A stretch of 57,080 nucleotides of DNA from Clostridia bacterium (lineage in GTDB: Bacteria > CBDUZB01 > JAGLHV01). The stretch lies in the NCBI GenBank assembly GCA_030637025.1, contig DAOVVV010000015.1, forward strand, positions 1 to 57,080, written 5' to 3'. Below the pieces are notes generated by a model that was not told the DNA's origin, did no database searches, and worked only from the letters and a program-made list of their open reading frames with translations. This document shows, in pieces, positions 2,919 through 43,545 of the stretch. A program made the translations under genes and the position numbers. Every line of letters starts with the position of its first letter. The stretch's first letter is position 1.

Positions 2919-4472
2919 TTACATTTTAGCGGATTTTACTTTCTTCTTACTAAACAATTTCCAAACAGACTCCATTTCCTTTATTTTCAAAATATAAGCA
3001 GCAGCAATAAAAACGATTATACTCAAAGGCAAAGAAATTAAAACCTTCAGATATTTATTTTCTAACATAAAAAAAGCAACAAAATAACAAACAACACCCA
3101 TTATTATACCGGCTATAGCTGTTTTAATAAATAATTCAAAAAGAGAACCGTCATCCCATTTTCCAATTCGCCTGCCTAACAAAACAAATAAAAGTATTAT
3201 ATTTACAGAAGAAGCTATAGCCGTAGCTAAAGCTAATCCTCCTACCTGTAAAATTCTCATCAAAATTATATTCAAAACTATATTTATTATCATACAAAGA
3301 CTAGCTGTTTTCACCGGAGTACGTGTATCCTGAAAAGAATAAAAAGCAGAAACTATTATCTTCACCCCTGCATCAGCAAGTAATCCAAACGAATAAAAAA
3401 ATAAAGCAGCAGAAGTCATCGTTGTCGCAGCAGAAGAAAATTCACCCCGCTGAAATAACATCCTAATAATCGGTTTTCCCAAAACCATCAATCCTATAGC
3501 AGACGGGATCATGGTAAAGATAACCATTCTTAAAGATAAAGAAAGAGTCTTTTTCATTTCCCCTAAATTGTTTTCGGCTATACTTCTGGACATAACAGGA
3601 AGGGTTACTGTAGCAATAGCTGTGCCAAATAAAGCTAACGGAAATTGCACCAGGCGATTGGAATAATATAAAGCAGTGATGCTTCCCTCCTTTAATAAAG
3701 AAGCACAAATAGTATCGACAAAAACATTAATCTGATTTATAGAAAGACCGATAATCGCCGGTAACATTAAAAATCCAATTCTTTTCAATCCCGGATGAGA
3801 TAAATCTAATTTAAAACTCACTAAAAAATTACTCTTGATTATAGAAGGTATTTGAAAAAATAATTGTCCGAATCCACCGATTAAAACTCCTATTGCCAAT
3901 CCTCTTATCGGTGCCTCCATTAACGGACAAACGGTCAAAACAAAAAATATCTGAGAAATACTTAAAAGACACGGAGCTAAAGCCGGGATAATAAATTTAT
4001 GTAAAGAATTCAATATTCCCATACTAAGAGCAGCTAAACCTATCGCCGTCATAAAAGGAAACATTATCCTGGTAAGCTGAATAGTTAATGCTAATTTTTC
4101 CGGGTCATTGGCAAAACCAGGAGCAATTAAACGAACCAATACCGGAGCAAATACAATGCCTATTACAGTTAAAACGGCTAAAATTATCAACAAAACCGTA
4201 ACTACCACACTTACTAATTGTTGTGTTTCCTTTTTAGATTTATTAGTCAAATATTCGGTAAAAACCGGAATAAAAGAACTGGACAGGGAATTTTCTCCCA
4301 GTAAACGCCTGAGTAAATTGGGAATACGATAAGCCACATAAAAAGCATCTGCCACCAAAGTTGCCCCAAACATATTGGCAATCACCATATCTCTTATATA
4401 ACCTAAAATTCTACTTAATAAAGTAGCCGAACTAATACTTCCTACATGTTTAGTCATTTTATGATTTATCAA
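2919..4472 (-). CDS. murJ: Lipid II flippase MurJ
   Basis: SRILGYIRD, AYRIPNLLRRL motifs; many TM helices. Confidence 0.96.
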   Translation of the reverse strand: MINHKMTKHVGSISSATLLSRILGYIRDMVIANMFGATLVADAFYVAYRIPNLLRRLLGENSLSSSFIPVFTEYLTNKSKKETQQLVSVVVTVLLIILAVLTVIGIVFAPVLVRLIAPGFANDPEKLALTIQLTRIMFPFMTAIGLAALSMGILNSLHKFIIPALAPCLLSISQIFFVLTVCPLMEAPIRGLAIGVLIGGFGQLFFQIPSIIKSNFLVSFKLDLSHPGLKRIGFLMLPAIIGLSINQINVFVDTICASLLKEGSITALYYSNRLVQFPLALFGTAIATVTLPVMSRSIAENNLGEMKKTLSLSLRMVIFTMIPSAIGLMVLGKPIIRMLFQRGEFSSAATTMTSAALFFYSFGLLADAGVKIIVSAFYSFQDTRTPVKTASLCMIINIVLNIILMRILQVGGLALATAIASSVNIILLFVLLGRRIGKWDDGSLFELFIKTAIAGIIMGVVCYFVAFFMLENKYLKVLISLPLSIIVFIAAAYILKIKEMESVWKLFSKKKVKSAKM

Positions 4473-6624: not shown

Positions 6625-6652
6625 TTTTTTCTCCCTTTTTTATAATAATTTT

Positions 6653-6931
6653 TAGACTTCTGCAAAATAGCCTTTTCACCTTTATTGTCATTCCTGCGAA
6701 AGCAGGAATCTATTGATCTTTTAAGCACATTATAGATTCCGCATTAACAGACTGTGTCATAACTGCCGTTTTTGGCTTTGTCATTCCCGAAATCTTTTAT
6801 CGGGAATCCATTTTCCGACGATAATATTTTTCTGTCATCTCCGGGTCAAACCCGAAGATGACAGAAAAAAGCAATTGTGACACGATATCCAAGTGCGGAA
6901 TGACAAAATGTGTCATTTTGCAGAATTCTTA
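6653..6931. repeat. Composite MITE (TAGACTTCTGCAAAAT ends) with a second MITE nested at 6748-6889
   Basis: TIRs TAGACTTCTGCAAAAT / ATTTTGCAGAATTCT; GTCATTCC..GGAATC hairpins; copy without the nested element at 29725-29889. Confidence 0.8.
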
Positions 6932-7597: not shown

Positions 7598-7873
7598 TTA
7601 AAACTCCTCTAAATTTTGTCGTAAAAAGTATATATTTTTTGCCATCAGACGCCTCTAATTTCAGATCGTGACAAAATGTCACGACCTCGCTTCCTTCTTT
7701 TTTAAGCCGTTGTTTTAGCTTTCTCCAATATGCTCCGGAATCAGAACTTTCGGTTAAAACCCCGCACAAAACCACCACTCGCCATTATGAATTATCCTTC
7801 TTATCTGTTTTCCCTTAAAAACGGTTAATTTATGAGCCTGTTCAACTTCATTAGTTTTTTTCTTCTTTGACAT
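7584..7873 (-). pseudogene. BRO-N domain (phage antirepressor-like) remnant, frameshifted and truncated
   Basis: Fragments MSKKKKTNEVEQAHKLTV / KQIRRIIHNGEWWF / GVLTESSDSGAYWRKLKQRLKKEGSEVVTFCHDLKLEASDGKKY across frames. Confidence 0.7.
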
Positions 7874-7988: not shown

Positions 7989-8723
7989 CTATACCAAGAT
8001 GTGTTTCAAATTCTTAGATAATATATCTTTCATATCTTTAATTCCCATATTCTTTAATACTGCCAATTTTTGAATTATTATTTCCAAATCTGACGGATTA
8101 AATGTTTTATTATTTATTTTAATGAAAGGAGCATCACTTTCTATAAGAAGTTTGTTTTCAGGAATTCGGCTTATAATTTTTTTACCATTAGTGCTTTGTA
8201 GCATTGCATAATTAATAGAAAAATAGCATTTTTTTCGAATTGCATCATCAAGTAATTTTAATGCTCCTGAATACCAATGCAAAATCACTTTCCCATTAAA
8301 ACTATCTCCAAGTAGAGATAATACTTTTTCCTCACTACCTCTAGAATGAATACTAAAAATTTTACCACCAATAGAATTACACCGATAAATTAATTCTTCA
8401 AAAAAGCGGATCTGATTTTTACAGTCAATTGTAGATTTTCTTCTCAAATCTAGCCCCACTTCTCCAATATATTTTGCGTTGTCTAAACATCTCCACATTT
8501 CAGGAATGTATTTTTTGTATTCCGTGATCAATTCAGGATGAAAGCCTAGTGCCACACGAATATACTTGGACTTAACTATTTTTTTTAACTTATTATACAA
8601 TGGAGGTAAATTAGTAACTGCAATTGTATAGCTTGCCAGTATTTCAATATCTTCAACAATTTGCAGAATATTATTATTATATAAGTCTAAATGAAAATGT
8701 GTGTCATGTAGAAACTTAATCAT
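7989..8723 (-). CDS. qatD: Qat anti-phage system TatD-family nuclease QatD
   Basis: HDTHFHLD, LGFHPE, IGEVGLD, SIHSR, LHWYSG, ESDAPF; last gene of a KAP-hyp-QueC-TatD operon. Confidence 0.93.
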   Translation of the reverse strand: MIKFLHDTHFHLDLYNNNILQIVEDIEILASYTIAVTNLPPLYNKLKKIVKSKYIRVALGFHPELITEYKKYIPEMWRCLDNAKYIGEVGLDLRRKSTIDCKNQIRFFEELIYRCNSIGGKIFSIHSRGSEEKVLSLLGDSFNGKVILHWYSGALKLLDDAIRKKCYFSINYAMLQSTNGKKIISRIPENKLLIESDAPFIKINNKTFNPSDLEIIIQKLAVLKNMGIKDMKDILSKNLKHILV

Positions 8724-10032
8724 CTAAATCGTCCAATAACTTTGTTAATTCTTTCATTCCTCGTTCATATAAATCTTTATATTCGTTTAGATTATCATGC
8801 AACGGTCCTGACATTTGAATTCGCAAATAATTGTTTGTTGAATTATTATATTTTTGAATACCTATTCTATATGTTTTTAAATTATTGGTAGCTGTTTTAC
8901 CATCTTTAAAATTCGTATCCCTATATGTAGAAGCATCTTGTATATTTGCCCTTTTTATTGATGCTCTCCTGATGACACAAGGTAAACATATACCACAGTG
9001 GCTTGGAGCAGACTCCCCTTGATACCTTCCAACATCTGGATGAGAGCAAGACATAGTATTGCTAATATTGTTAGTTAATAAAATTTTATTTTTACATTCA
9101 AGTATCATTTCTCCTTTTGTTTTAAACTGGTAAGGATTATATAATTTGACTTGAACACTAAGACCTTTTATAAGTTTTTGTATTAGCTTCATATAATATG
9201 GATGTGTTGTTCTTGTACTACTACTACCAAGCCTAGAATTAGTAAGCGGAATATTTAATGAAATAAGTCCATTTTCTGGAATAATTAAATCTATTTCCTT
9301 TTCCATTGTAGTGGCTAAAACAATAGCATGGGCAAAAAACATAAATGATCTTGTTCTTGTAGTATCTTCAACTCCATGAAGAGGTGATGCATGAAACTTA
9401 AAGACTTCAAACTTCTTTAACGGGTATTTTTCTTTTAAAGCATTATGAACATTATCAATAAATTTTGTTCCACTTGAACCTCCTCCATAATGATTTACAA
9501 ATGCAATATTGTCTGATGTTTCAAGTAAATCAATTGCTCCTATATATGAGTCCAAACCACCTGAAAGCATACATAATTTATTAAAAACAAGTTTTTCACT
9601 TCTATTTTTCTCTATTTTTTTCTTAAAATCTTCTTCATGAGAATTCAACTTTCTCACTCTAAATTCAATCTCCCAAATATCACCACTTAAAAATGATAAC
9701 ATTTCCTCTAATAATTCTTTTTGAGATTTCCATTTATATATAGATAAAACAGGCAGGTATAACTTTATTTTTCGAGTCCATGCATCTGGAAACATTTCTC
9801 GTTGTATTAGCCGATCTGCATAGAATATAAACAGAGAAATATATAATAAATCTAAACCTTCAGAAGAATAAAAGAGTGGTAGGCTCTTAAGCTTCTTATT
9901 ATGATATGTTCCTGTATTCCAGAAAGTATAATGATAATGTGCTTTATTTGAGAGATTAACCTCTAATGCCTCTGTTGAAATTGAGAAGTCGTCATCTTCA
10001 TTTAACTTACAGATAATATCTATAGTATCCAT
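8716..10032 (-). CDS. qatC: Qat anti-phage system QueC-like protein QatC
   Basis: SGGLDS PP-loop, PENG, TRTTHP, SCSHP...HCGICLPC Zn site; likely ATG at 10032 overlapping the qatB stop (TAATG). Confidence 0.93.
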   Translation of the reverse strand: MDTIDIICKLNEDDDFSISTEALEVNLSNKAHYHYTFWNTGTYHNKKLKSLPLFYSSEGLDLLYISLFIFYADRLIQREMFPDAWTRKIKLYLPVLSIYKWKSQKELLEEMLSFLSGDIWEIEFRVRKLNSHEEDFKKKIEKNRSEKLVFNKLCMLSGGLDSYIGAIDLLETSDNIAFVNHYGGGSSGTKFIDNVHNALKEKYPLKKFEVFKFHASPLHGVEDTTRTRSFMFFAHAIVLATTMEKEIDLIIPENGLISLNIPLTNSRLGSSSTRTTHPYYMKLIQKLIKGLSVQVKLYNPYQFKTKGEMILECKNKILLTNNISNTMSCSHPDVGRYQGESAPSHCGICLPCVIRRASIKRANIQDASTYRDTNFKDGKTATNNLKTYRIGIQKYNNSTNNYLRIQMSGPLHDNLNEYKDLYERGMKELTKLLDDLDD

Positions 10033-10847
10033 TATAGGGCTCCCTCTATTACAGAATAACAATCCGCATATATCTCATTAATAATTTTCAGTACTGCGAT
10101 TGATGTATAATCAAAGGTAGGCATATTGCGATCTTTTAATTCATTATCTACAACACCAGAAATATATCCTTTTATTTCGTTCTCTATCTTTAAAGCCGAA
10201 CCTTCATTTTGAGAGTGTTCTTCAAATCTACTTTCTAGATCATTTAAAAAACGCTGAAATATGTATGATGCTATATACTTATTCATAACAGTGTTAAATT
10301 TTTCTTCATCCAAGTTGTTTAAAGAATTTATATCATCATTATTTTCTGCAACCTCTTCATAAAGTATTTCCACAGCATCTAATAATGCATTTCTAGCGAC
10401 TGCATCTTCCTTGGTATTTGGAGCTGGTGCAATTTTATTAATTAAATCACCAAGCACTTCTGCAACATTTCGTCCAATAAATTCAATCTTAAATTGGTTT
10501 AATGTATTTTGAATGCCCTGAGATGATATACTAGATAAAAATCCTCCCAATTTTGCAGTTGTCGATTTTCCTGATATTGCTGAATAAGCGGCCTTCCTAG
10601 CTCCACCATGTGCCTTAACATATGATGAAAGAGCAGCATTGGTATTTCTATTTGAGCCGCCTATTAGTCTTGATATTTGAGTCTTTGCATTTTGCCAAAG
10701 TACCGTATTGGGATTCTTTGCTGTATCCTTAAGCGGTTGAGGTTGTTGAGCATCTGGATTTTCAGAAGGAGTTTCGTTGCCATTAAAATCATTGGGTAGT
10801 AAAGGATTTTTACCTTTAGGTCCTCCATAGCTACTTGATGTACCCAT
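10032..10847 (-). CDS. qatB: Qat anti-phage system protein QatB
   Basis: MGTSSSYGGP N-terminus characteristic of QatB; lies between the KAP NTPase and QueC-like genes. Confidence 0.88.
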   Translation of the reverse strand: MGTSSSYGGPKGKNPLLPNDFNGNETPSENPDAQQPQPLKDTAKNPNTVLWQNAKTQISRLIGGSNRNTNAALSSYVKAHGGARKAAYSAISGKSTTAKLGGFLSSISSQGIQNTLNQFKIEFIGRNVAEVLGDLINKIAPAPNTKEDAVARNALLDAVEILYEEVAENNDDINSLNNLDEEKFNTVMNKYIASYIFQRFLNDLESRFEEHSQNEGSALKIENEIKGYISGVVDNELKDRNMPTFDYTSIAVLKIINEIYADCYSVIEGAL

Positions 10848-12676
10848 TATTTAACCTCCTTAAAATCTTTTTTTATTGCAGCCTCTAATTTTGTATTTTC
10901 TTTTGCCCAACGATTCACAATCTCTTGAACTTCGTATGTTTTACCTGTAGATTCCATAAACTCTTTAACTCGTGGAATGATGGTGAATGTTAGTTTGTCA
11001 CCGGTTAACTGATTCAAACAACTAATAGTTCCTGTATATAAAAATTCTTTACTTGCTCCCCATTCTAATAGTGATCTAAATAATTTAAAATTAACCTTTG
11101 AATCAGATAATATTTTATCAGATAACTTTTCTAAAATTATATTGGCTTCTGAATCATTAATACTGGCTAAGGATTTGAGTGCAGTTTTTCTTTGTGAATC
11201 AGCACCGCTTAATAAATTTTCTAAAGTCTTTTTTGCGATTGGAGACAACCTAAACCGTCCTAAATTTAATTGACTTGATAGACTCTCCCGTGAAAAATAG
11301 AAATACGGTCGCAAATCAATATCAGTCAATTTTGGCGATAACCCAATCCAATCAATAACCCATTTATCATCTTTCCATAATTTAAGTTCTTTAATATCAT
11401 CCCAATTATCTTCCTCAATTAACTTAAGTTCATTAGGTTTGCCCTTTTCTAATGATTGAATCTCTGATAATTTTCTAAACAATTCTGCTTTAAAGTATTC
11501 CAACAGCATAAGTTTCGCTAAAACTTTTCTATCTAAAGTCAAGTTTCTATGGAAAGACATTTTTTCTCTCATTGAAAGAGAATTTAAAAATCTTTTACAA
11601 TGTCTCGGATTTCCATTCAGGCCAATTGATAAGACCGAAGAAAGTTGCTTTGCAAGTAATAATGTATCTCTTGAATTAGTAGCTATTTTAGGTAATTCTT
11701 CGTTAAGCTTCTCATATGATAATTCAAATTCAAGGAAATTATCTTTTTTTGATTTTGAAATAAAATCCAAGAATTTGTTAAAGTCTTCATCATTTAATTC
11801 ATTTTGTAAGAGTAAGCACAATATGTAAAACTCAACTTCTCTACTGCTAAGTTGTGGTATCCTGATTGGATATTGAATCATTTTCTCAAGATATTCTTTC
11901 CCAATATCAATTTGATTTCCTTCAATTTCAGAATATTTTTTTCTTACCGAATAAATTACATGCCGTTCATCTGCACCTATAACAAATGAAGTGTTTTGAG
12001 TAAAAAGGAAAAGTCTAATTGCTTCAAGAGTATCTAATATTGTAGCAGGATTACATCTATCAAGTTCATCGATGAAAACTACTAATTTATCTATTTTTGA
12101 TTCTTTAAGTAATTCTGTAAAATCTTTTTGAAATGTTTTAATATTTTTACGAAGCTCTTCACTTTTAAATTCTTTTTTAAGAATATTATCTATATCTTTT
12201 TCTGAAACATTTCTTGGTTTGTCTTTTATTTTAGAAAGAATACTTTTCACTGTAATATCTGCAATCGTACCTATTCCACCTGTTGTTAAAAAATCTATCC
12301 CATATTTCAACCCCATACTTGCTAGTTTTAGCTTATCAGTATTTTTGTATAGTCTTTTAAGTATTTCTTTTGCTTTGCCTGTTGGCGATTTTTTTTTGTT
12401 AATTTTATCAAGTATTGTTCCCAAAAAAGCTGTTTTTGCATCTTCATAGCCTTCAAACAACCAGCCATTAAATTTGATACAAAGAGTATTTTTTTCTTTT
12501 GATAATCCTTCAATGCACATTTGCATGAGACTTGATTTTCCACTTCCCCAATTGCCATAAACCCCAATACTGGACGGGGAAAGATTCTTATCATTGATTA
12601 TATCTGTAACCGTTTCGGTTAAATATTTAAAATCAAGAAAATCAATTTTAGTCTCACTATCTTTCCACATTTTCAT
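10847..12676 (-). CDS. qatA: Qat anti-phage system KAP-family P-loop NTPase QatA
   Basis: MWKDSETKIDFLDF start, Walker A GNWGSGKS, Walker B VFIDELDRC, YLEKMIQ, NPRHCKRFLN. Confidence 0.93.
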   Translation of the reverse strand: MKMWKDSETKIDFLDFKYLTETVTDIINDKNLSPSSIGVYGNWGSGKSSLMQMCIEGLSKEKNTLCIKFNGWLFEGYEDAKTAFLGTILDKINKKKSPTGKAKEILKRLYKNTDKLKLASMGLKYGIDFLTTGGIGTIADITVKSILSKIKDKPRNVSEKDIDNILKKEFKSEELRKNIKTFQKDFTELLKESKIDKLVVFIDELDRCNPATILDTLEAIRLFLFTQNTSFVIGADERHVIYSVRKKYSEIEGNQIDIGKEYLEKMIQYPIRIPQLSSREVEFYILCLLLQNELNDEDFNKFLDFISKSKKDNFLEFELSYEKLNEELPKIATNSRDTLLLAKQLSSVLSIGLNGNPRHCKRFLNSLSMREKMSFHRNLTLDRKVLAKLMLLEYFKAELFRKLSEIQSLEKGKPNELKLIEEDNWDDIKELKLWKDDKWVIDWIGLSPKLTDIDLRPYFYFSRESLSSQLNLGRFRLSPIAKKTLENLLSGADSQRKTALKSLASINDSEANIILEKLSDKILSDSKVNFKLFRSLLEWGASKEFLYTGTISCLNQLTGDKLTFTIIPRVKEFMESTGKTYEVQEIVNRWAKENTKLEAAIKKDFKEVK

Positions 12677-12689
12677 TCTCCATTAAGAC

Positions 12690-12761
12690 TTATAACGTTT
12701 AAGCTCACTGGATTTCACGGAGCGCAGCGGAGTGAAATTCCAGTGCAGCGCCTTGTTAGGT
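12690..12761 (-). mobile_element. Integron attC recombination site (72 bp)
   Basis: - strand: R'' ACCTAAC ... GCT-G-CACTGGAATTTCAC / GTGAAATCCAGTG-AGC stem with an unpaired base ... R' GTTATAA. Confidence 0.9.
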
Positions 12762-12779
12762 GAATTTTTCCCGCACAAA

Positions 12780-13772
12780 CTAGAATATTGGACCTGAATG
12801 GTCTGGTGCATTTGATCCTGCCTCAAAATTCATCAAATTAAAGAAACTCCTCCTTGTATCAGTATCATATAAGTCAACACTGCCAATATGGTGATAACCG
12901 CAATCTCTTGTTTTTGAGTACAGGCGGCCATTTATTTTTTCAGTATTCAATTCAACTGTTAGTGCTCCAAAATCTATTTCATAGACATTCTTAAGTATTT
13001 TCTGGGTAGGGCTTGGAAACCTCTTTTTGTATTTATCGTTATATGGTGGTTCAAAATACCTTATTAACCCGGCCTCAATAAGCGATATTTCAAGATCCTT
13101 TGATATTAAAGCATGTTGCTTTTGTAGATCAGCAATAACATCACGATCATCTTCGAGTTTTAATGATTTATCTCGACCATCAAACGAAATAATTGTTTGG
13201 GGTGAGACATATTGAGCCATAATTATAAGAGCCTCCATATCTGGAAAATCATTATTTATATCTGCCAACACTTGTTGCAACGTAGAATGACTCTGTAACC
13301 TGTCCTTTGCCGAGCGCCTTCCTTCAGCATATGACATTCCAATATAAACGACTTCTAAATCACGAATAGATTGATCATTAATGTAATCACACATCATACA
13401 TAAGAGATGTGCTGGAGCAGTAAAAAAAGTTACACCATCCTTAATTAGCGAGAGTTTTGTGTGTGGATAGTCACTAATTTCAATTGAATCGGCATTTGCT
13501 TCACCTATCAACGAGAATTCAACTTCCTTTGCAACTCCATTCTTACGATAAGTAAATTTACCTATTGTCTTGCAATCATCTACAACAATTGATCCAGGAA
13601 CATAAGAAATACGAGGTCTTTTGACGATTAAATAGATATGGCAGTCGTCAGCCAGTTCATTAGCTTCTTGAGATTGCTGCTCTATATTCTTAATCTCTTT
13701 TGGGTGCAACAATAACAGCCCATCAGAATAAAAGCTCAGAGCTAATTCAGAAATGTATTTTCTAGTCGCCAT
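12780..13772 (-). CDS. Cassette-borne hypothetical protein, probable divergent GIY-YIG nuclease
   Basis: HIY(45-47)...YIG(143-145)...R158...E233-AGLIRYFEPPY-N245, paralleling the UvrC N-terminal motifs. Confidence 0.65.
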   Translation of the reverse strand: MATRKYISELALSFYSDGLLLLHPKEIKNIEQQSQEANELADDCHIYLIVKRPRISYVPGSIVVDDCKTIGKFTYRKNGVAKEVEFSLIGEANADSIEISDYPHTKLSLIKDGVTFFTAPAHLLCMMCDYINDQSIRDLEVVYIGMSYAEGRRSAKDRLQSHSTLQQVLADINNDFPDMEALIIMAQYVSPQTIISFDGRDKSLKLEDDRDVIADLQKQHALISKDLEISLIEAGLIRYFEPPYNDKYKKRFPSPTQKILKNVYEIDFGALTVELNTEKINGRLYSKTRDCGYHHIGSVDLYDTDTRRSFFNLMNFEAGSNAPDHSGPIF

Positions 13773-13808
13773 CTTTGATTATTCACACCTTTCTAGAATG
13801 TATTTTTC

Positions 13809-13874
13809 TCCTAACATTAAAAATCACCTGCCCGAACCCGTAGGGTGAGGGTCAGGTGGATTGCTTTGTTGGAA
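13809..13874 (-). mobile_element. Integron attC recombination site (66 bp)
   Basis: - strand: R'' TTCCAAC ... AATC-C-ACCTGACC / GGGCAGGT-GATT stem ... R' GTTAGGA. Confidence 0.88.
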
Positions 13875-14552
13875 TTTCTTTATTATTATTGAATAAATAT
13901 TACCCCCAACAGATGAAGTTGTCTTTTCAATGTCACGCATTGTATTCTGGAAAGCTCTTTTAATGCTTTTGTCTTCGGGAATTCCTTGTTTTATATATTT
14001 TTTTGTATATGAAGTCATGATTTCGATAGGATTAAGCTTATTCCCACTATTAGTACATAAAACTGCAAATTCAAAAGAATCTTTTTTAATGTCTAATTTT
14101 CTTTCTTGAATTGAAAAAGGTTGTTTATGCATATTATCTATGATAAATAACATAGGGAGGTTATTTTTGTCGTATCCTGCAATAAAAACTATAAGTCTTC
14201 TGTCTTTCTTTGTAGTTGTTAGATTCCATTTATCAATAATTATTCTTTGTGCAACATGGACGATATCCTGAATATTATTAGCTACATTTATATTTTCTAT
14301 TATTTCTTCTGTTAATTCTGGAATATAAACCCCAGCTGTAAGCATACCAATCTTATTTGTTATTTGATGCACTTTTGATATATTATTTAAAGCAATTTTA
14401 CCTGATTTGTTATAAGTTGTCCTTCCATCTGAAAAAAGGTATATGGAATCATTTGAAAAAATGGCAGCTATTAATGTTCCAGAGAAATAATAATTCTCAA
14501 AACAAAAAACGCTAAATATTAAAGAAGCAATTATAAATACAGTCTTATTCAT
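13824..14552 (-). CDS. Cassette-borne proteasome-beta/Ntn-hydrolase-like protein with N-terminal signal peptide
   Basis: Hydrophobic leader, then G|T1..D17-G-R19-T-T21..K35..AG49 and C-terminal SVGGNI; ORF reads through the attC site. Confidence 0.65.
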   Translation of the reverse strand: MNKTVFIIASLIFSVFCFENYYFSGTLIAAIFSNDSIYLFSDGRTTYNKSGKIALNNISKVHQITNKIGMLTAGVYIPELTEEIIENINVANNIQDIVHVAQRIIIDKWNLTTTKKDRRLIVFIAGYDKNNLPMLFIIDNMHKQPFSIQERKLDIKKDSFEFAVLCTNSGNKLNPIEIMTSYTKKYIKQGIPEDKSIKRAFQNTMRDIEKTTSSVGGNIYSIIIKKFQQSNPPDPHPTGSGR

Positions 14553-14559
14553 TTTTATT

Positions 14560-14590
14560 ATTCCAACATTATATATTATCTGGTTACTCT
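14560..14590 (-). mobile_element. attI-like cassette insertion site (G|TTGGAAT core)
   Basis: GTTGGAAT at 14567-14560 is the exact complement of the first cassette's R'' ATTCCAAC; no attC hairpin upstream. Confidence 0.6.
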
Positions 14591-14614
14591 ATTTTCAGAA
14601 AACCACACTACATT

Positions 14615-14644
14615 ATTATAAAAAACAAAAGGGTTTAGTGTCAA
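14615..14644 (-). promoter_or_regulatory. Consensus sigma70 promoter (Pc-like) facing the cassette array
   Basis: TTGACA(14644-39)-N18-TATAAT(14620-15). Confidence 0.75.
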
Positions 14645-14829
14645 CTTTTTTATTTTTTCTCTTGCCCGATGACAAAACACATGATATTTAATAGTTATAC
14701 AGTGACTGCATAAATTGACAAAGGTGTTATTAAAATGGACTGTTTTGAAAAACATTGCTTAAAGTTTTAATTTATTGAAGTATCTGTCCCCTATGTTCGC
14801 CTATATTTTTTCTATCTCCCTGTTTTCTC

Positions 14830-15597
14830 CTATTGAGGCAAGTTATTAATTTTTTCCATAAGTAATTCTTTTAAATTATCCACAATCTTTCTTTGTTGTA
14901 AAGGTAAGAACTTACCTAAATCCTGTGACATCTTTTTAGAATTAATTGCTTTTATCTTCCTGACTAAATCATCCGGGGATATCTTCTTTTTGTAATAAAG
15001 CATCTTTTTATTAACCATTTCCCAATTAATCCGGACTTGTTTTGTTAGCAAGAACCAGATATCAAAAAAATCCCTTCCTTTTGCTCTGGTCATTATTGCT
15101 CTTATTTTCTCAGCAAGAATCTCCTCTATTTCTAAATGACGAATAACAGGATATGGTCCAACAGGAAAAAGGGTTTCTAAAATGCTTTCTTTACTGGTTA
15201 AAGGTTTTTCCCGGAAAGAAAAATCCAAATGAACATTTAAAGGAAATTTCAAATTTTCTGCTTTAAAACTTAAAAATCCTGTTAAACTCACCTTGCTAAT
15301 TTCTATTTTCTTTAATGTTACATTAGGAATAGTCAAATTGGTATCTTTAAGAGCTTTTTCTAAAATCTTAAATAATTTTTTTCCGGAAATAAGGGAAGTA
15401 AAATCTAAATCTTCGGAAAACCTAAAAGATTGAAACAAAAGTCTTAGAGCAGTCCCCCCTTTGAAAAAAATTTTATCACTTTCTCTCCGGGTATAGAGAT
15501 TGGAAAGAAAAACTATCTGTAAATATTCTCTTATTACAGAAAATTTATCTATCTTAAATTTCTGACTCAAATTTTGAATTTGTTCCGTCGTAATCAT
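14830..15597 (-). CDS. abiEii: Type IV TA toxin, AbiEii-family nucleotidyltransferase
   Basis: FKGGTALRL..FRFSEDLDF, EILAEKIRA, RAKGRDFFD. Confidence 0.92.
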   Translation of the reverse strand: MITTEQIQNLSQKFKIDKFSVIREYLQIVFLSNLYTRRESDKIFFKGGTALRLLFQSFRFSEDLDFTSLISGKKLFKILEKALKDTNLTIPNVTLKKIEISKVSLTGFLSFKAENLKFPLNVHLDFSFREKPLTSKESILETLFPVGPYPVIRHLEIEEILAEKIRAIMTRAKGRDFFDIWFLLTKQVRINWEMVNKKMLYYKKKISPDDLVRKIKAINSKKMSQDLGKFLPLQQRKIVDNLKELLMEKINNLPQ

Positions 15598-16172
15598 TTT
15601 ATTATCTTTCTTAATAAATTATGAAAAATGGGGCTTTTTATCTTTGAGGCCAGTTGTTTTAAACGAACAGGATCAACATCTTTAAGAATCCACTCCTCAG
15701 AATTAATCGAAGTCCTCCCAAAAGATGCAAAAAAAATAGTATCTATAATTGCCTTTTCCTTATCGGCAATAAGAAATTTATCATTTTGATCATACCCAAA
15801 ATAATATCTTTGATCCAGATGTAAGTAAATAAATTCTTTATCACCAATTATAAAACGTTTTGTTCGCCTTGGGGTAACAGAAATAATTACTTGTGGAACC
15901 TGGAGAAGAATACCGTAATAAGCCAACGCCGATTCTAAAGAAATATAAGACGGTTTATACAAAAAATTAGCAATTTCAAAATTATCTAATTTCCTCAATC
16001 CTAAACAATAAACATCCCTTTTCAGCCTTAATAGCAGACCCGATTCAGTTAGTCTGTTTAATTGTGTATAAACAGTTTTATCTTTTAAATAAAGCAGTTT
16101 CTTCAAGTCTGCTAAACTGAAAAGAGACTTATTAGATTTTTCCAATACTCTAATAACTTCTAATTGTTTCAA
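15594..16172 (-). CDS. abiEi: Type IV TA antitoxin, AbiEi family
   Basis: wHTH N-terminus, PSYISLESALAYYG, ADKEKAIID; 4-bp overlap with the toxin gene. Confidence 0.9.
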   Translation of the reverse strand: MKQLEVIRVLEKSNKSLFSLADLKKLLYLKDKTVYTQLNRLTESGLLLRLKRDVYCLGLRKLDNFEIANFLYKPSYISLESALAYYGILLQVPQVIISVTPRRTKRFIIGDKEFIYLHLDQRYYFGYDQNDKFLIADKEKAIIDTIFFASFGRTSINSEEWILKDVDPVRLKQLASKIKSPIFHNLLRKIIK

Positions 16173-16303
16173 TCAATTACCCTCTAGCAAGCTACAAGGT
16201 ATGCAACTGTTGAATTATTCTAAAAATCCCCCTATCCCCCTTTTTCAAAGGGGGAACCCAACAAAGCAACCCCATAGCAAACACAAATTAAACCTCACCT
16301 GCT

Positions 16304-16356
16304 AATATATCCACAATACTTAACAATATTGTAAAGGATTGTGCATATATTGTCAA
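16304..16356 (-). promoter_or_regulatory. abiE promoter with overlapping 24-bp-arm inverted-repeat operator
   Basis: TTGACA(16356-51)-N17-TACAAT; IR arms 16304-16327 and 16328-16351 with 3 mismatches. Confidence 0.75.
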
Positions 16357-16397
16357 GTTGTTTTTTAACAACCTTGCCTCATTCCTTAAATATTATT

Positions 16398-16561
16398 AGG
16401 ATAGGGCAAATGTGTTTCGAACGATATAGCAAATTTTAGCGAAAATAAGCGTTAAAAAAATGAGCTTGTCTGAGCAAAGCGAGTTGCTCATTTTTAGCTT
16501 GTTTTTGCGTGCCCGCAGGGTAAAATTATGCGTCCAGAGAGAAACATATTTTGGCTTTATT
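16398..16561. repeat. MITE-like element (AATAAAGGCTAAATATGTTT-type ends)
   Basis: Homologous to 28393-28637 at both ends; central hairpin AAAAATGAGC..GCTCATTTTT. Confidence 0.7.
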
Positions 16562-16655
16562 AAACCACCCTATTTGTCCAATTGTTTTTTAAGGATTTTT
16601 CCCGGATTATTATTGAGCCCTTTAAGATAATTAGGTCTTCGGTCAGTTTTTAATA

Positions 16656-16796
16656 CAGACTGTGTCACAATTCAATTTTCTGGTTAGTAATTTCAAACCT
16701 TTAGGTTGCATCATCGACGAAGAAATTACGCAGGCTTCCTCCTCAGGCGGACAAGAAAGCCTGCGACTACCTAAAGAAAGGGCCTGTCACAGTTTG
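16656..16796. repeat. MITE-like element (CAGACTGTGTCA ends) with REP hairpins, overlapping the leuS stop
   Basis: CAGACTGTGTCAC ... GTCACAGTTTG; CGCAGGCTT..AAGCCTGCG-ACTAC hairpin. Confidence 0.6.
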
Positions 16797-34888: not shown

Positions 34889-34973
34889 TTTATTTCTGTT
34901 TCAAAGATATTTTAATCTACGCTCTTAATTGACATTTCTTATTTAACTTTAATTTATTGGTTATTAAATAAAA

Positions 34974-35128
34974 AACCCCCGCGCATGCCGTGTGTGTAGC
35001 CTTTTGAAGCCCAAATACCAAGTGGGTATTCCGTTTCTGTAACCAAGATTACAGAAAACCGACAAATTCCCTGATTTTAGGCTTGTAGGCTCAAAATGAT
35101 CAACACATCACTAACATCGCAGGGACAA
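34974..35128 (-). ncRNA. ssrS: 6S RNA
   Basis: Closing stem CCCTGCGATGTT..GTGT / ACAC..GGCATGCGCGGGG, TTGAGCC/GGCTTCAA, CCCACTTGG; between zapA and fau; upstream TTGAGA-N17-TAAAAT. Confidence 0.85.
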
Positions 35129-43457: not shown

Positions 43458-43545
43458 GCCGGAGTGGTGAAATGGCAGACACAGCAGACTCAAAATCTGC
43501 CGTCTAATTGTGGACATGAGGGTTCGACTCCCTCCTCCGGCACCA
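43458..43545 (+). tRNA. tRNA-Leu(CAA)
   Basis: GCCGGAG/CTCCGGC acceptor stem, GCAGA-CTCAAAA-TCTGC anticodon arm, long variable arm, GGTTCGACTCC, 3' ACCA. Confidence 0.97.

Follow-up and report, generated by a model that had tools for sequence, protein, structure and literature searches.

Introduction

attC clusters that have no integron integrase nearby (CALINs) have been ascribed to four routes of origin, with loss of the integrase gene intI among them (Cury et al. 2016, PMC4889954). Pseudogenes of intI were reported there near 15 of 279 CALINs (5%), and attI sites were searchable only for classes 1–3; attI sites differ among integron classes (PMC3146285). Here and below, statements on published work refer to the accessible portions of the sources cited. 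The window analysed in this study is a stretch of 57,080 nucleotides (nt), contig C65 of a Clostridia genome (G000, 2.36 Mb, 97.8% complete). Between leuS and lptE it holds an array proper of two cassettes (12696-14566), which resembles the CALINs of PMC4889954, these being short arrays of two or more attC sites with no intI close by. Unlike those CALINs, as far as they are described in that source, the array is headed by a complete unit of cassette promoter (Pc) and attI together with a stub of intI, and such heads recur many times per genome. A pseudogene search of the kind employed there would be expected to miss stubs of 5-25 codons.

Several other described systems share single traits with this locus. 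A sedentary integron with long-form IntI (locus L016) has the same 167-168 nt spacing to the divergent intI start with a sigma-70-type promoter in between, as well as the same N- and C-terminal IntI peptides, whereas at the window locus intI has been lost by deletion and the platform occurs not once but in multiple scattered copies. Repeated or truncated attI sites have been found inside class 1 and class 2 integrons, where IntI1 excises attI-gene-attI units at 100% (PMC12901181); in such delta-attI-type or attI-duplicated cassettes attI or pieces of it are repeated within arrays, as is also observed between cassettes here, but the published cases sit in intI-bearing integrons, while here platforms of promoter and stub occupy unlinked chromosomal loci. 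In Xanthomonas integrons (10.1101/2025.06.18.660453) intI is inactivated and several arrays occur per genome, as in the present case; a repeated Pc-attI head is not among the features given for the extra loci in the accessible text of that preprint. [quoted passage not shown] Furthermore, cassettes inserting at genomic attG sites beside resident promoters have been reported (10.1101/2022.09.11.507474), and the occurrence of defence genes as integron cassettes is established in the literature.

The cassettes and the Qat genes of the window are ordinary, and the noteworthy part is the multiplied platform with its readable intI stubs; the literature covered, to which subscription papers mostly did not belong, does not describe a single genome holding numerous Pc-attI platforms that bear intI stubs. 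We consider it probable, judging from the sequence, that the window shows one copy of an orphan multi-copy integron platform whose intI was deleted and which has been reloaded in trans.

A repeated Pc-attI platform

The platform comprises the following features.

14644-14615, minus strand: Pc-type promoter TTGACA-N18-TATAAT, predicted from the sequence, 47 nt ahead of the crossover
14567..14603, minus strand: attI-like site with the crossover G at 14567, at which the conserved core stops
14645..14734, plus strand: probable intI promoter and leader, facing away from the array; leader kept in 13 of 22 copies
14696-14712, plus strand: palindrome in the intI leader, possibly an operator
14720-14726, plus strand: Shine-Dalgarno (SD)-like AAAGGTG in the intI leader
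14735..14751, plus strand: 5' stub of intI, start codon and about five codons, then cut; positioned as in longer sister stubs
14751..14791, minus strand: inverted-repeat (TIRtron/MITE-like) element end truncating the intI stub, agreeing at 19/20 positions with the terminus of an element of this sort in locus L028

An earlier note on this DNA had pointed out the G|TT core at 14567 and the promoter upstream of it. Both hold, the promoter being the sole 12/12 site of 61 promoter-like matches between 6500 and 17000; what the note missed is that promoter and core together make up an integron platform that is repeated and carries intI stubs. The sequence between the -35 element and GTT, both included, is found at five further places in G000, three of them within 6 kb on contig C11, and in two of three congeners (G001, G002 and G003, which are 97, 89 and 86% complete; all genomes are drafts). 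Full copies amount to 22, with six in G000, 12 in G001, three in G003 and one in G041. Common to them is a core of about 80 nt which ends at GTT, the likeness stopping right after the G, and 20 of the 22 retain both the -35 and the -10 element. Except for the orthologue in G001, the other copies are 65-88% alike to that of the window.

The bases 3' of GTT are variable among the copies and reflect the R'' box of the attC site that follows, uncommon variants included. For 11 of the 22 copies a hairpin was chosen automatically and blind to the post-GTT bases, three visibly wrong picks being kept; the five bases after GTT agreed with the R'' box of this hairpin at 37 of 55 positions, compared to 20.9±3.5 in permutations, none of 100,000 reaching the observed value. 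As the repeat is shared up to the G and the bases thereafter mirror the next R'' box, it behaves as an attI site with its Pc, and the bases behind the crossover G belong to the first cassette. To judge by these sequence comparisons, promoter and G|TT therefore constitute an integron platform and no chance landing site.

An inverted-repeat element end is located just upstream of nine of the 22 copies, compared to about 0.25% in random windows, although one of the three motifs searched was derived from a copy in this set. Two transposases of the corresponding kind are encoded in the genome. Inverted-repeat ends beside integron parts are likewise a trait of TIRtrons (PMC3733652) and of integrons flanked by MITEs or integron mobilization units (PMC3575428). 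In contrast to the latter, as they are described in the accessible text, a matched pair of ends around the platform is not shown here, the ends seen being the single upstream ones and a decayed end after qatD.

Partial platforms were also encountered. At G000:C14:281-347 (locus L048) the promoter half without the attI core precedes a resident-looking gene at the contig end and is possibly a domesticated promoter. Short delta-attI-like pieces lie between cassettes near position 3680 of locus L073 (minus strand) and at G000:C11:19749; in L073 the bases after GTT of the attI piece match the end of the next cassette. An interpretation of the core as a dif site was rejected, since three loose matches to what we take to be the dif motif are present in the genome and none of them is at a platform.

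Remnants of the integrase gene

According to the earlier note no intI is adjacent and an AbiE pair takes its place. No intact intI is indeed present beside the attI-like site, and AbiE is located upstream, but the slot itself is occupied by the five-codon stub, with AbiE beyond it. In 13 of the 22 copies the opposite strand carries a leader with the palindrome and the SD-like motif, and in 11 of 22 the start lies 162-168 nt from the core. The distance from the intI start to the crossover G is 168 nt in the window and 167 nt in the intact integron L016, in which a TTGACA promoter is also situated in between. The clearest trace of the lost integrase is seen at G000:C66:33877-33950 (L047:3870-3960), where an intI start is joined straight to the last codons; an unrelated IntI matches 18 residues on the opposite strand beside this copy.

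In order to read the stubs against a profile, 120 long-form IntI proteins were used, and G000 together with 13 fetched regions was scored in all six frames (4.95 million windows). The N-terminal part matches best at the stub of G003:C373 (37.4, next 29.1, with an average-score profile) and the C-terminal part at the stub adjoining the G000:C66 copy (67.7, next 33.1), the five-codon stub of the window being too short for a separate profile test. The deletion junctions vary by copy, with five codons left in the window, about twenty in G003:C373 and the fusion of start and C-terminus at C66. On this reading of the sequences the integrase gene has been deleted from the platforms and its start kept as a stub; the palindrome at 14696-14712 is a possible operator.

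The searches for an integrase were made in draft genomes, and the negatives given here mean 'not found' rather than 'absent'. As the earlier note had suggested, G000 was searched for IntI; TIGR02249 stays below its cut-off, and the only tyrosine recombinases are two XerC/XerD-type genes. None of the three congeners passes the IntI model, which is passed by five of the 41 genomes in that search. With IntI protein as query, no IntI was detected in G000-G003 or G041, but only XerC/XerD-type genes and one 174-amino-acid (aa) plasmid-type recombinase on G001:C159. The latter was rejected as an IntI, being shorter than IntI and located among parA- and rep-like genes. It belongs to a plasmid-like module (L067:382-7230 in G001; labels assigned by eye) with parA-like, rep-like and coupling-protein-like ATPase genes, upstream of TIR-like genes and a platform copy. 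The suggestion of the earlier note that the integrase acted in trans or has since been lost is supported by these negatives and by the intI stubs of the copies.

Searches for a parent integron, in which this attI would adjoin an intact intI, gave a similar picture. An exact-pattern scan returned eight loci in genome contigs, five of which were inspected for open reading frames (ORFs) and were all orphan; in metagenome contigs it returned none and subsequently one chance match inside a coding region, and in viral contigs none. DNA searches of nine and three further genomes yielded nothing beyond the copy already known from G041 and two matches that were short and weak, and the platform shows no likeness to ten IntI-bearing loci from unrelated genomes.

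The attC sites and the cassettes

Behind the crossover the array consists of the following features.

13815..14566, minus strand: cassette 1 (752 bp), ends complementary 8/8
13824..14552, minus strand: gene for a 242-aa protein of proteasome-beta (Ntn-hydrolase) fold with a hydrophobic leader; stop codon within attC1
13809..13874, minus strand: attC1, 41.0 bits with the covariance model
12696..13814, minus strand: cassette 2 (1119 bp), ends complementary 9/10
12780..13772, minus strand: gene for a 330-aa protein of GIY-YIG fold, candidate defence nuclease
12690..12761, minus strand: attC2, 54.3 bits with the covariance model

Both attC sites display an R'' box YAAC, a 5-nt spacer, an L''/L' stem with extrahelical bases and an R' box GTT. 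Their folding z-scores are -2.7 to -3.0 (200 shuffles, both strands), with 0, 0, 0 and 2 shuffles folding as well. A covariance model was built from 13 attC-like sites located elsewhere in these genomes, the two sites of the window being excluded from training; it scores attC2 with an E value of 3e-11 and attC1 with 7e-8, while the runner-up in the 57 kb window attains 11.8 bits. Within the 13 sister sites 91% of the cells are paired and ten of 16 pairs vary on both sides, the structure having been drawn from the same sequences. With 150 candidates scored per genome, the model counts ten sites in G000 (six of them training sites), 20 in G001, four in G003 and two in G041, and none in G002, which also lacks the platform. 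It superseded an earlier heuristic scan, which with 34 matches compared to 17-22 in three shuffles was too weak. The two hairpins and the complementary cassette ends described in the earlier note are hence borne out, as is the assignment as a CALIN, both hairpins being scored by a model trained on other sites and no integrase being nearby. From these sequence features the genes for the 242-aa and 330-aa proteins are true integron cassettes.

The frame of the 242-aa protein traverses most of attC1 (13824-13874, minus strand) with the stop inside; two relatives end in a similar C-terminal peptide and are therefore probably cassettes as well. Both attC sites are bridged, with one to two differences, by contigs of two runs from one cold seep metagenome study, so that the locus is no chimera, although one of these runs may be the source of the assembly.

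Cargo differences at matching platforms

The attC sites, the crossover point, the copy number, the sister intI stubs and the differing cargo at orthologous copies can be read directly from the DNA. The leuS-lptE interval, which the earlier note proposed to compare in relatives, holds other genes behind the same platform in G001, and a fixed order is not seen. Neither outcome that the note named as refuting its reading, unscored hairpins and the same genes in fixed order, was obtained. The orthologue has the same succession of leuS, abiE and platform; toward lptE there follow, besides others, a deaminase-ATPase gene and a type IIG restriction gene that a transposase has split, with the interval spanning a contig break. 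The platforms of the window and G001 have a common deletion junction; their likeness is 99% as far as the G and drops to 44% beyond it. Between G000 and G001 the identity of the 263 non-coding nt that follow abiEii amounts to 99-100%, compared to 79-92% for the flanking genes (Poisson P ~5e-8), which suggests a recent exchange between the species.

Two further pairs show similar behaviour, the first of them being a cleaner case than the window and its orthologue. G001:C48 and G003:C373 share the same stub and a 99% alike core, fall to 48% after the G, and each contain a complete, different first cassette; G000:C34 and G003:C359 have common distal DNA and differing proximal cassettes. The same deletion combined with different genes from the crossover onwards suggests an integrase acting in trans after the loss of intI. 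At L029:8843-10599 and L028:1-2851 a type IIG restriction-modification (RM) gene was observed to be broken up by a tyrosine transposase that has inverted-repeat ends, part of the gene being duplicated on both sides of the transposase.

Weighing of the explanations

According to the reading we hold probable, a complete head with Pc, attI and a long-form intI start would have lost the body of intI, in the window at a transposon end. The lineage would carry many such platforms, each still a site of landing and expression, and an integron integrase from elsewhere, either on a visiting element or encoded by a copy missing from the assemblies, would insert circular cassettes at G|TT. Two cassettes would thereby have come to lie between the promoter and qatABCD in the leuS-lptE defence hotspot, where without an integrase the array would be stable and six genes could be read from one promoter. 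Promoter activity, recombination after the loss of intI, the source of the integrase and any defence role of the two cassette genes are inferences.

A number of observations weigh against this reading. Behind the first gene no hairpin was picked automatically in ten of the 22 copies, some of which do have a hairpin by eye and others none, and one copy is without an ORF. The genomes are kin, so that the permutation test overstates the agreement. The N-terminal stub was recovered for one copy only and was missed by a shorter window and by a stricter log-odds profile, and an intact intI beside this attI was not found in the genome, metagenome or viral contigs searched. In G001 the orthologue reads ATT instead of GTT, and 24.6 kb of its island are devoid of attC sites, hence that swap need not be the work of an integrase. 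Finally, no joint at att sites is found among 15 joints listed (of 36; four runs, contigs only).

A different explanation, which we judge unlikely, is that the platforms are frozen relics of complete integrons that were loaded, lost intI and have been inert since, the differences representing ordinary deletion and replacement in islands. The variable deletion junctions, the modest likeness of all copies but the orthologue to that of the window (65-88%) and the decay of several attC sites are in line with it; moreover, given the excision of attI-gene-attI units by IntI1 (PMC12901181), the three tandem platforms on C11 should last only without an integrase. It is opposed by the pairs with the same junction and 99% alike cores, which hold different complete first cassettes and break exactly at the G, as well as by G000:C34 and G003:C359 with their common distal DNA and differing proximal cassettes. 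A swap of cargo between copies and congeners by homologous recombination or DNA uptake over the repeat of 80-260 nt, without any integrase, appears very unlikely. The 263 nearly identical nt amid more divergent flanking genes would fit such a process, but the core of the window tracks the G001 orthologue to the G whereas other copies are at most 88% alike, which would place the exchange point in the last few dozen bases, and the match of the cassette ends across the crossover requires an integrase at some stage.

That the cassettes form an ordinary CALIN, having entered a genomic GTT (attG) by chance next to a resident promoter, is hardly credible; insertion and expression of this kind have been reported (10.1101/2022.09.11.507474), but the same unit of promoter and core stands ahead of cassettes in 22 places and has intI stubs. 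Distinctly unlikely, and differing from the favoured reading solely in the status of Qat, is a cassette library dedicated to defence in which qatABCD is a third large cassette with a lost attC. The start of qatA 20 nt behind the G|TT of attC2 and the failure to find Qat in the congeners searched agree with a cassette, a transposon-like end 12-17 nt past the qatD stop could have removed the attC, and the GIY-YIG family of cassette 2 occupies accessory slots of prophages and satellites. Opposed to this are the lack of an attC behind qatD, the size of 4.7 kb, given that cassette recovery reportedly declines with size (preprint), and the lack of a defence match in most platform cargo. The orphan platform with intI deleted and cassettes reloaded in trans thus remains the reading preferred here.

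qatABCD and the neighbourhood of the array

Two gene groups adjoin the array.

7989..12676, minus strand: qatABCD, four intact genes, starting 20 nt behind the G|TT of attC2 and without a closing attC
14830..16172, minus strand: abiEi-abiEii pair upstream of the platform, a member of the hotspot outside the array; present in G001 at 92% nucleotide identity

PADLOC recognizes QatA (E 2e-127), QatB (2e-38), QatC (2e-122) and QatD (3e-62) in the order A-D, all near full length, and an anti-phage role is predicted from these matches; QatC was not found in four of four other genomes. The placement of Qat within the cassette array, as in the earlier note, is weak. The covariance model finds no third attC in the window, and behind qatD there is neither a closing attC nor a matching R'' box, so that qatABCD lies outside the closed array and may be either a large cassette with a lost site or an island operon before which cassettes landed. 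The claim that one strong promoter heads the cassettes is supported by the sequence, and since no terminator-like site is seen on the minus strand of the region scanned, a single transcript is possible.

With AbiE and Qat here and the type IIG RM gene in G001, the locus is, by gene content, a defence hotspot. The designation as a defence-gene library is partly supported, the arrays behind the platforms being, as far as gene matches tell, general in cargo. A PADLOC scan (E<=1e-5) of 45 genes behind platforms, namely 24 of 36 listed, 19 from G000 and two others, matched 11, one of them a generic methyltransferase match; among the matches are Thoeris A and B, a GmrSD-HNH nuclease, an AbiL-type ATPase, a type II RM pair and Fic. 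A match was obtained for three of 19 first-position genes. Other cargo includes a cupin, RsgA, a carbonic anhydrase, a PNPOx protein and many small family-less genes. In the C11 array a Thoeris ThsA (macro) gene and then a truncated ThsB gene stand behind the GmrSD-HNH cassette (L007:14725-15782), and at L009:8999-10084 an RsgA GTPase gene is a cassette with its own attC.

Behind qatD, at 7600-7870 (minus strand), a frameshifted gene remnant is located, which we take to be Bro-N-like and which is preceded by the decayed inverted-repeat element end. Contig depth in four runs is very high at 6650-6900 and 16200-16700 of the window, which points to other high-copy repeats in those intergenic stretches. 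The only Rfam matches in the window are a 6S RNA (34972-35128, minus strand) and one tRNA (43458-43542, plus strand), with none in the array region.

The cassette-encoded proteins

The 242-aa protein of cassette 1 matches PF00227 (E 1.3e-6), and its predicted model, with a mean predicted local distance difference test (pLDDT) value of 88.7, resembles 20S subunits in Foldseek (E 9e-11). TIGR03634 gives 18.9 bits against a cut-off of 224, and the only other match among proteasome-like NCBIfam families is a weak one to arc_protsome_A. Gly25-Thr26, as at a proteasomal processing site, Asp42 and Lys60 occupy the catalytic positions, and Arg44 is present as well; Asp42 and Lys60, presumably the equivalents of proteasomal Asp17 and Lys33, are invariant in 34 sequences, and Thr26 is conserved in less than 90%. 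Together with the hydrophobic leader the model makes an exported peptidase the likeliest assignment of this protein, of which 49 representatives were collected.

The model of the 330-aa protein of cassette 2 (pLDDT 90.4) includes a beta-rich insertion of about 85 residues. Foldseek returned nothing at E<=0.001, PADLOC no match and Pfam sub-threshold matches only. A wide structural search superposes it on T4 EndoII with a Z-score of 7.4 (root-mean-square deviation 4.1, 106 aligned residues), UvrC (6.7), I-TevI (5.8) and PD-T4-3 (5.5); four of the six rows with Z of at least 5 are named GIY-YIG-type nucleases, values below 8 being middling. Tyr47, Tyr143, Gly145, Arg158, Glu233 and Asn245 are invariant in 98 sequences, and Tyr47, Tyr143, Arg158, Glu233 and Asn245 are presumed to be catalytic. 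The fold and the invariant Y, YxG, R, E and N are shared with the known GIY-YIG nucleases T4 EndoII, the UvrC N-terminal domain, I-TevI, Eco29kI and PD-T4-3, in contrast to which the 330-aa protein contains the large insertion between the first two motifs.

The family has 327 relatives, with labels including Vibrio, Xanthomonas and Massilia; a relative with 59% identity is labelled Vibrio parahaemolyticus, and 28 plasmid records are all below 60%. Relatives are encoded at 25 viral loci, and 44 neighbours were scanned around 22 of these loci. In three cases (L098, L103 and L104) the relative sits with a primase-like gene on one side and a head gene on the other, a satellite-like layout; in three it neighbours an integrase, and in two it is placed among tail genes. 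Defence genes are common in accessory slots of this kind, and the position in such slots of prophages and satellites makes the modelled 330-aa protein a fair candidate for a defence nuclease. The proposal that both genes ahead of Qat are candidate new defence genes consequently stands for the GIY-YIG gene, whereas nothing found here ties the 242-aa protein to defence. The words 'GIY', 'Qat' and 'proteasome' are not mentioned in the main text of the Darracq preprint.

Implications

In the present genomes a route by which integrase-less arrays originate can be read from the DNA: the platform persists with stubs whose shortness puts them beyond standard searches, is multiplied and holds differing cargo under the same deletion. 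The multiplied platform with readable stubs thereby makes both the origin and the activity of such arrays testable. One prediction is that cassettes in genomes of this kind would mostly occupy expressed first positions, as opposed to the long silent arrays of Vibrio.

A more far-reaching possibility, which as a whole is doubtful and put forward tentatively, is twofold. The Pc-attI head may be a non-autonomous mobile element that spreads by copying through the chromosome and from one related species to another, via an integrase acting on attI or via the transposase of the neighbouring inverted repeats, and that provides a dozen parallel first-position expression slots reloaded by a passing integrase; at the same time, the 330-aa GIY-YIG family may represent an undescribed single-gene anti-phage system of integrons, prophages and phage satellites. 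If the head is mobile in this manner, many CALINs would be live satellites of a visiting integrase rather than debris.

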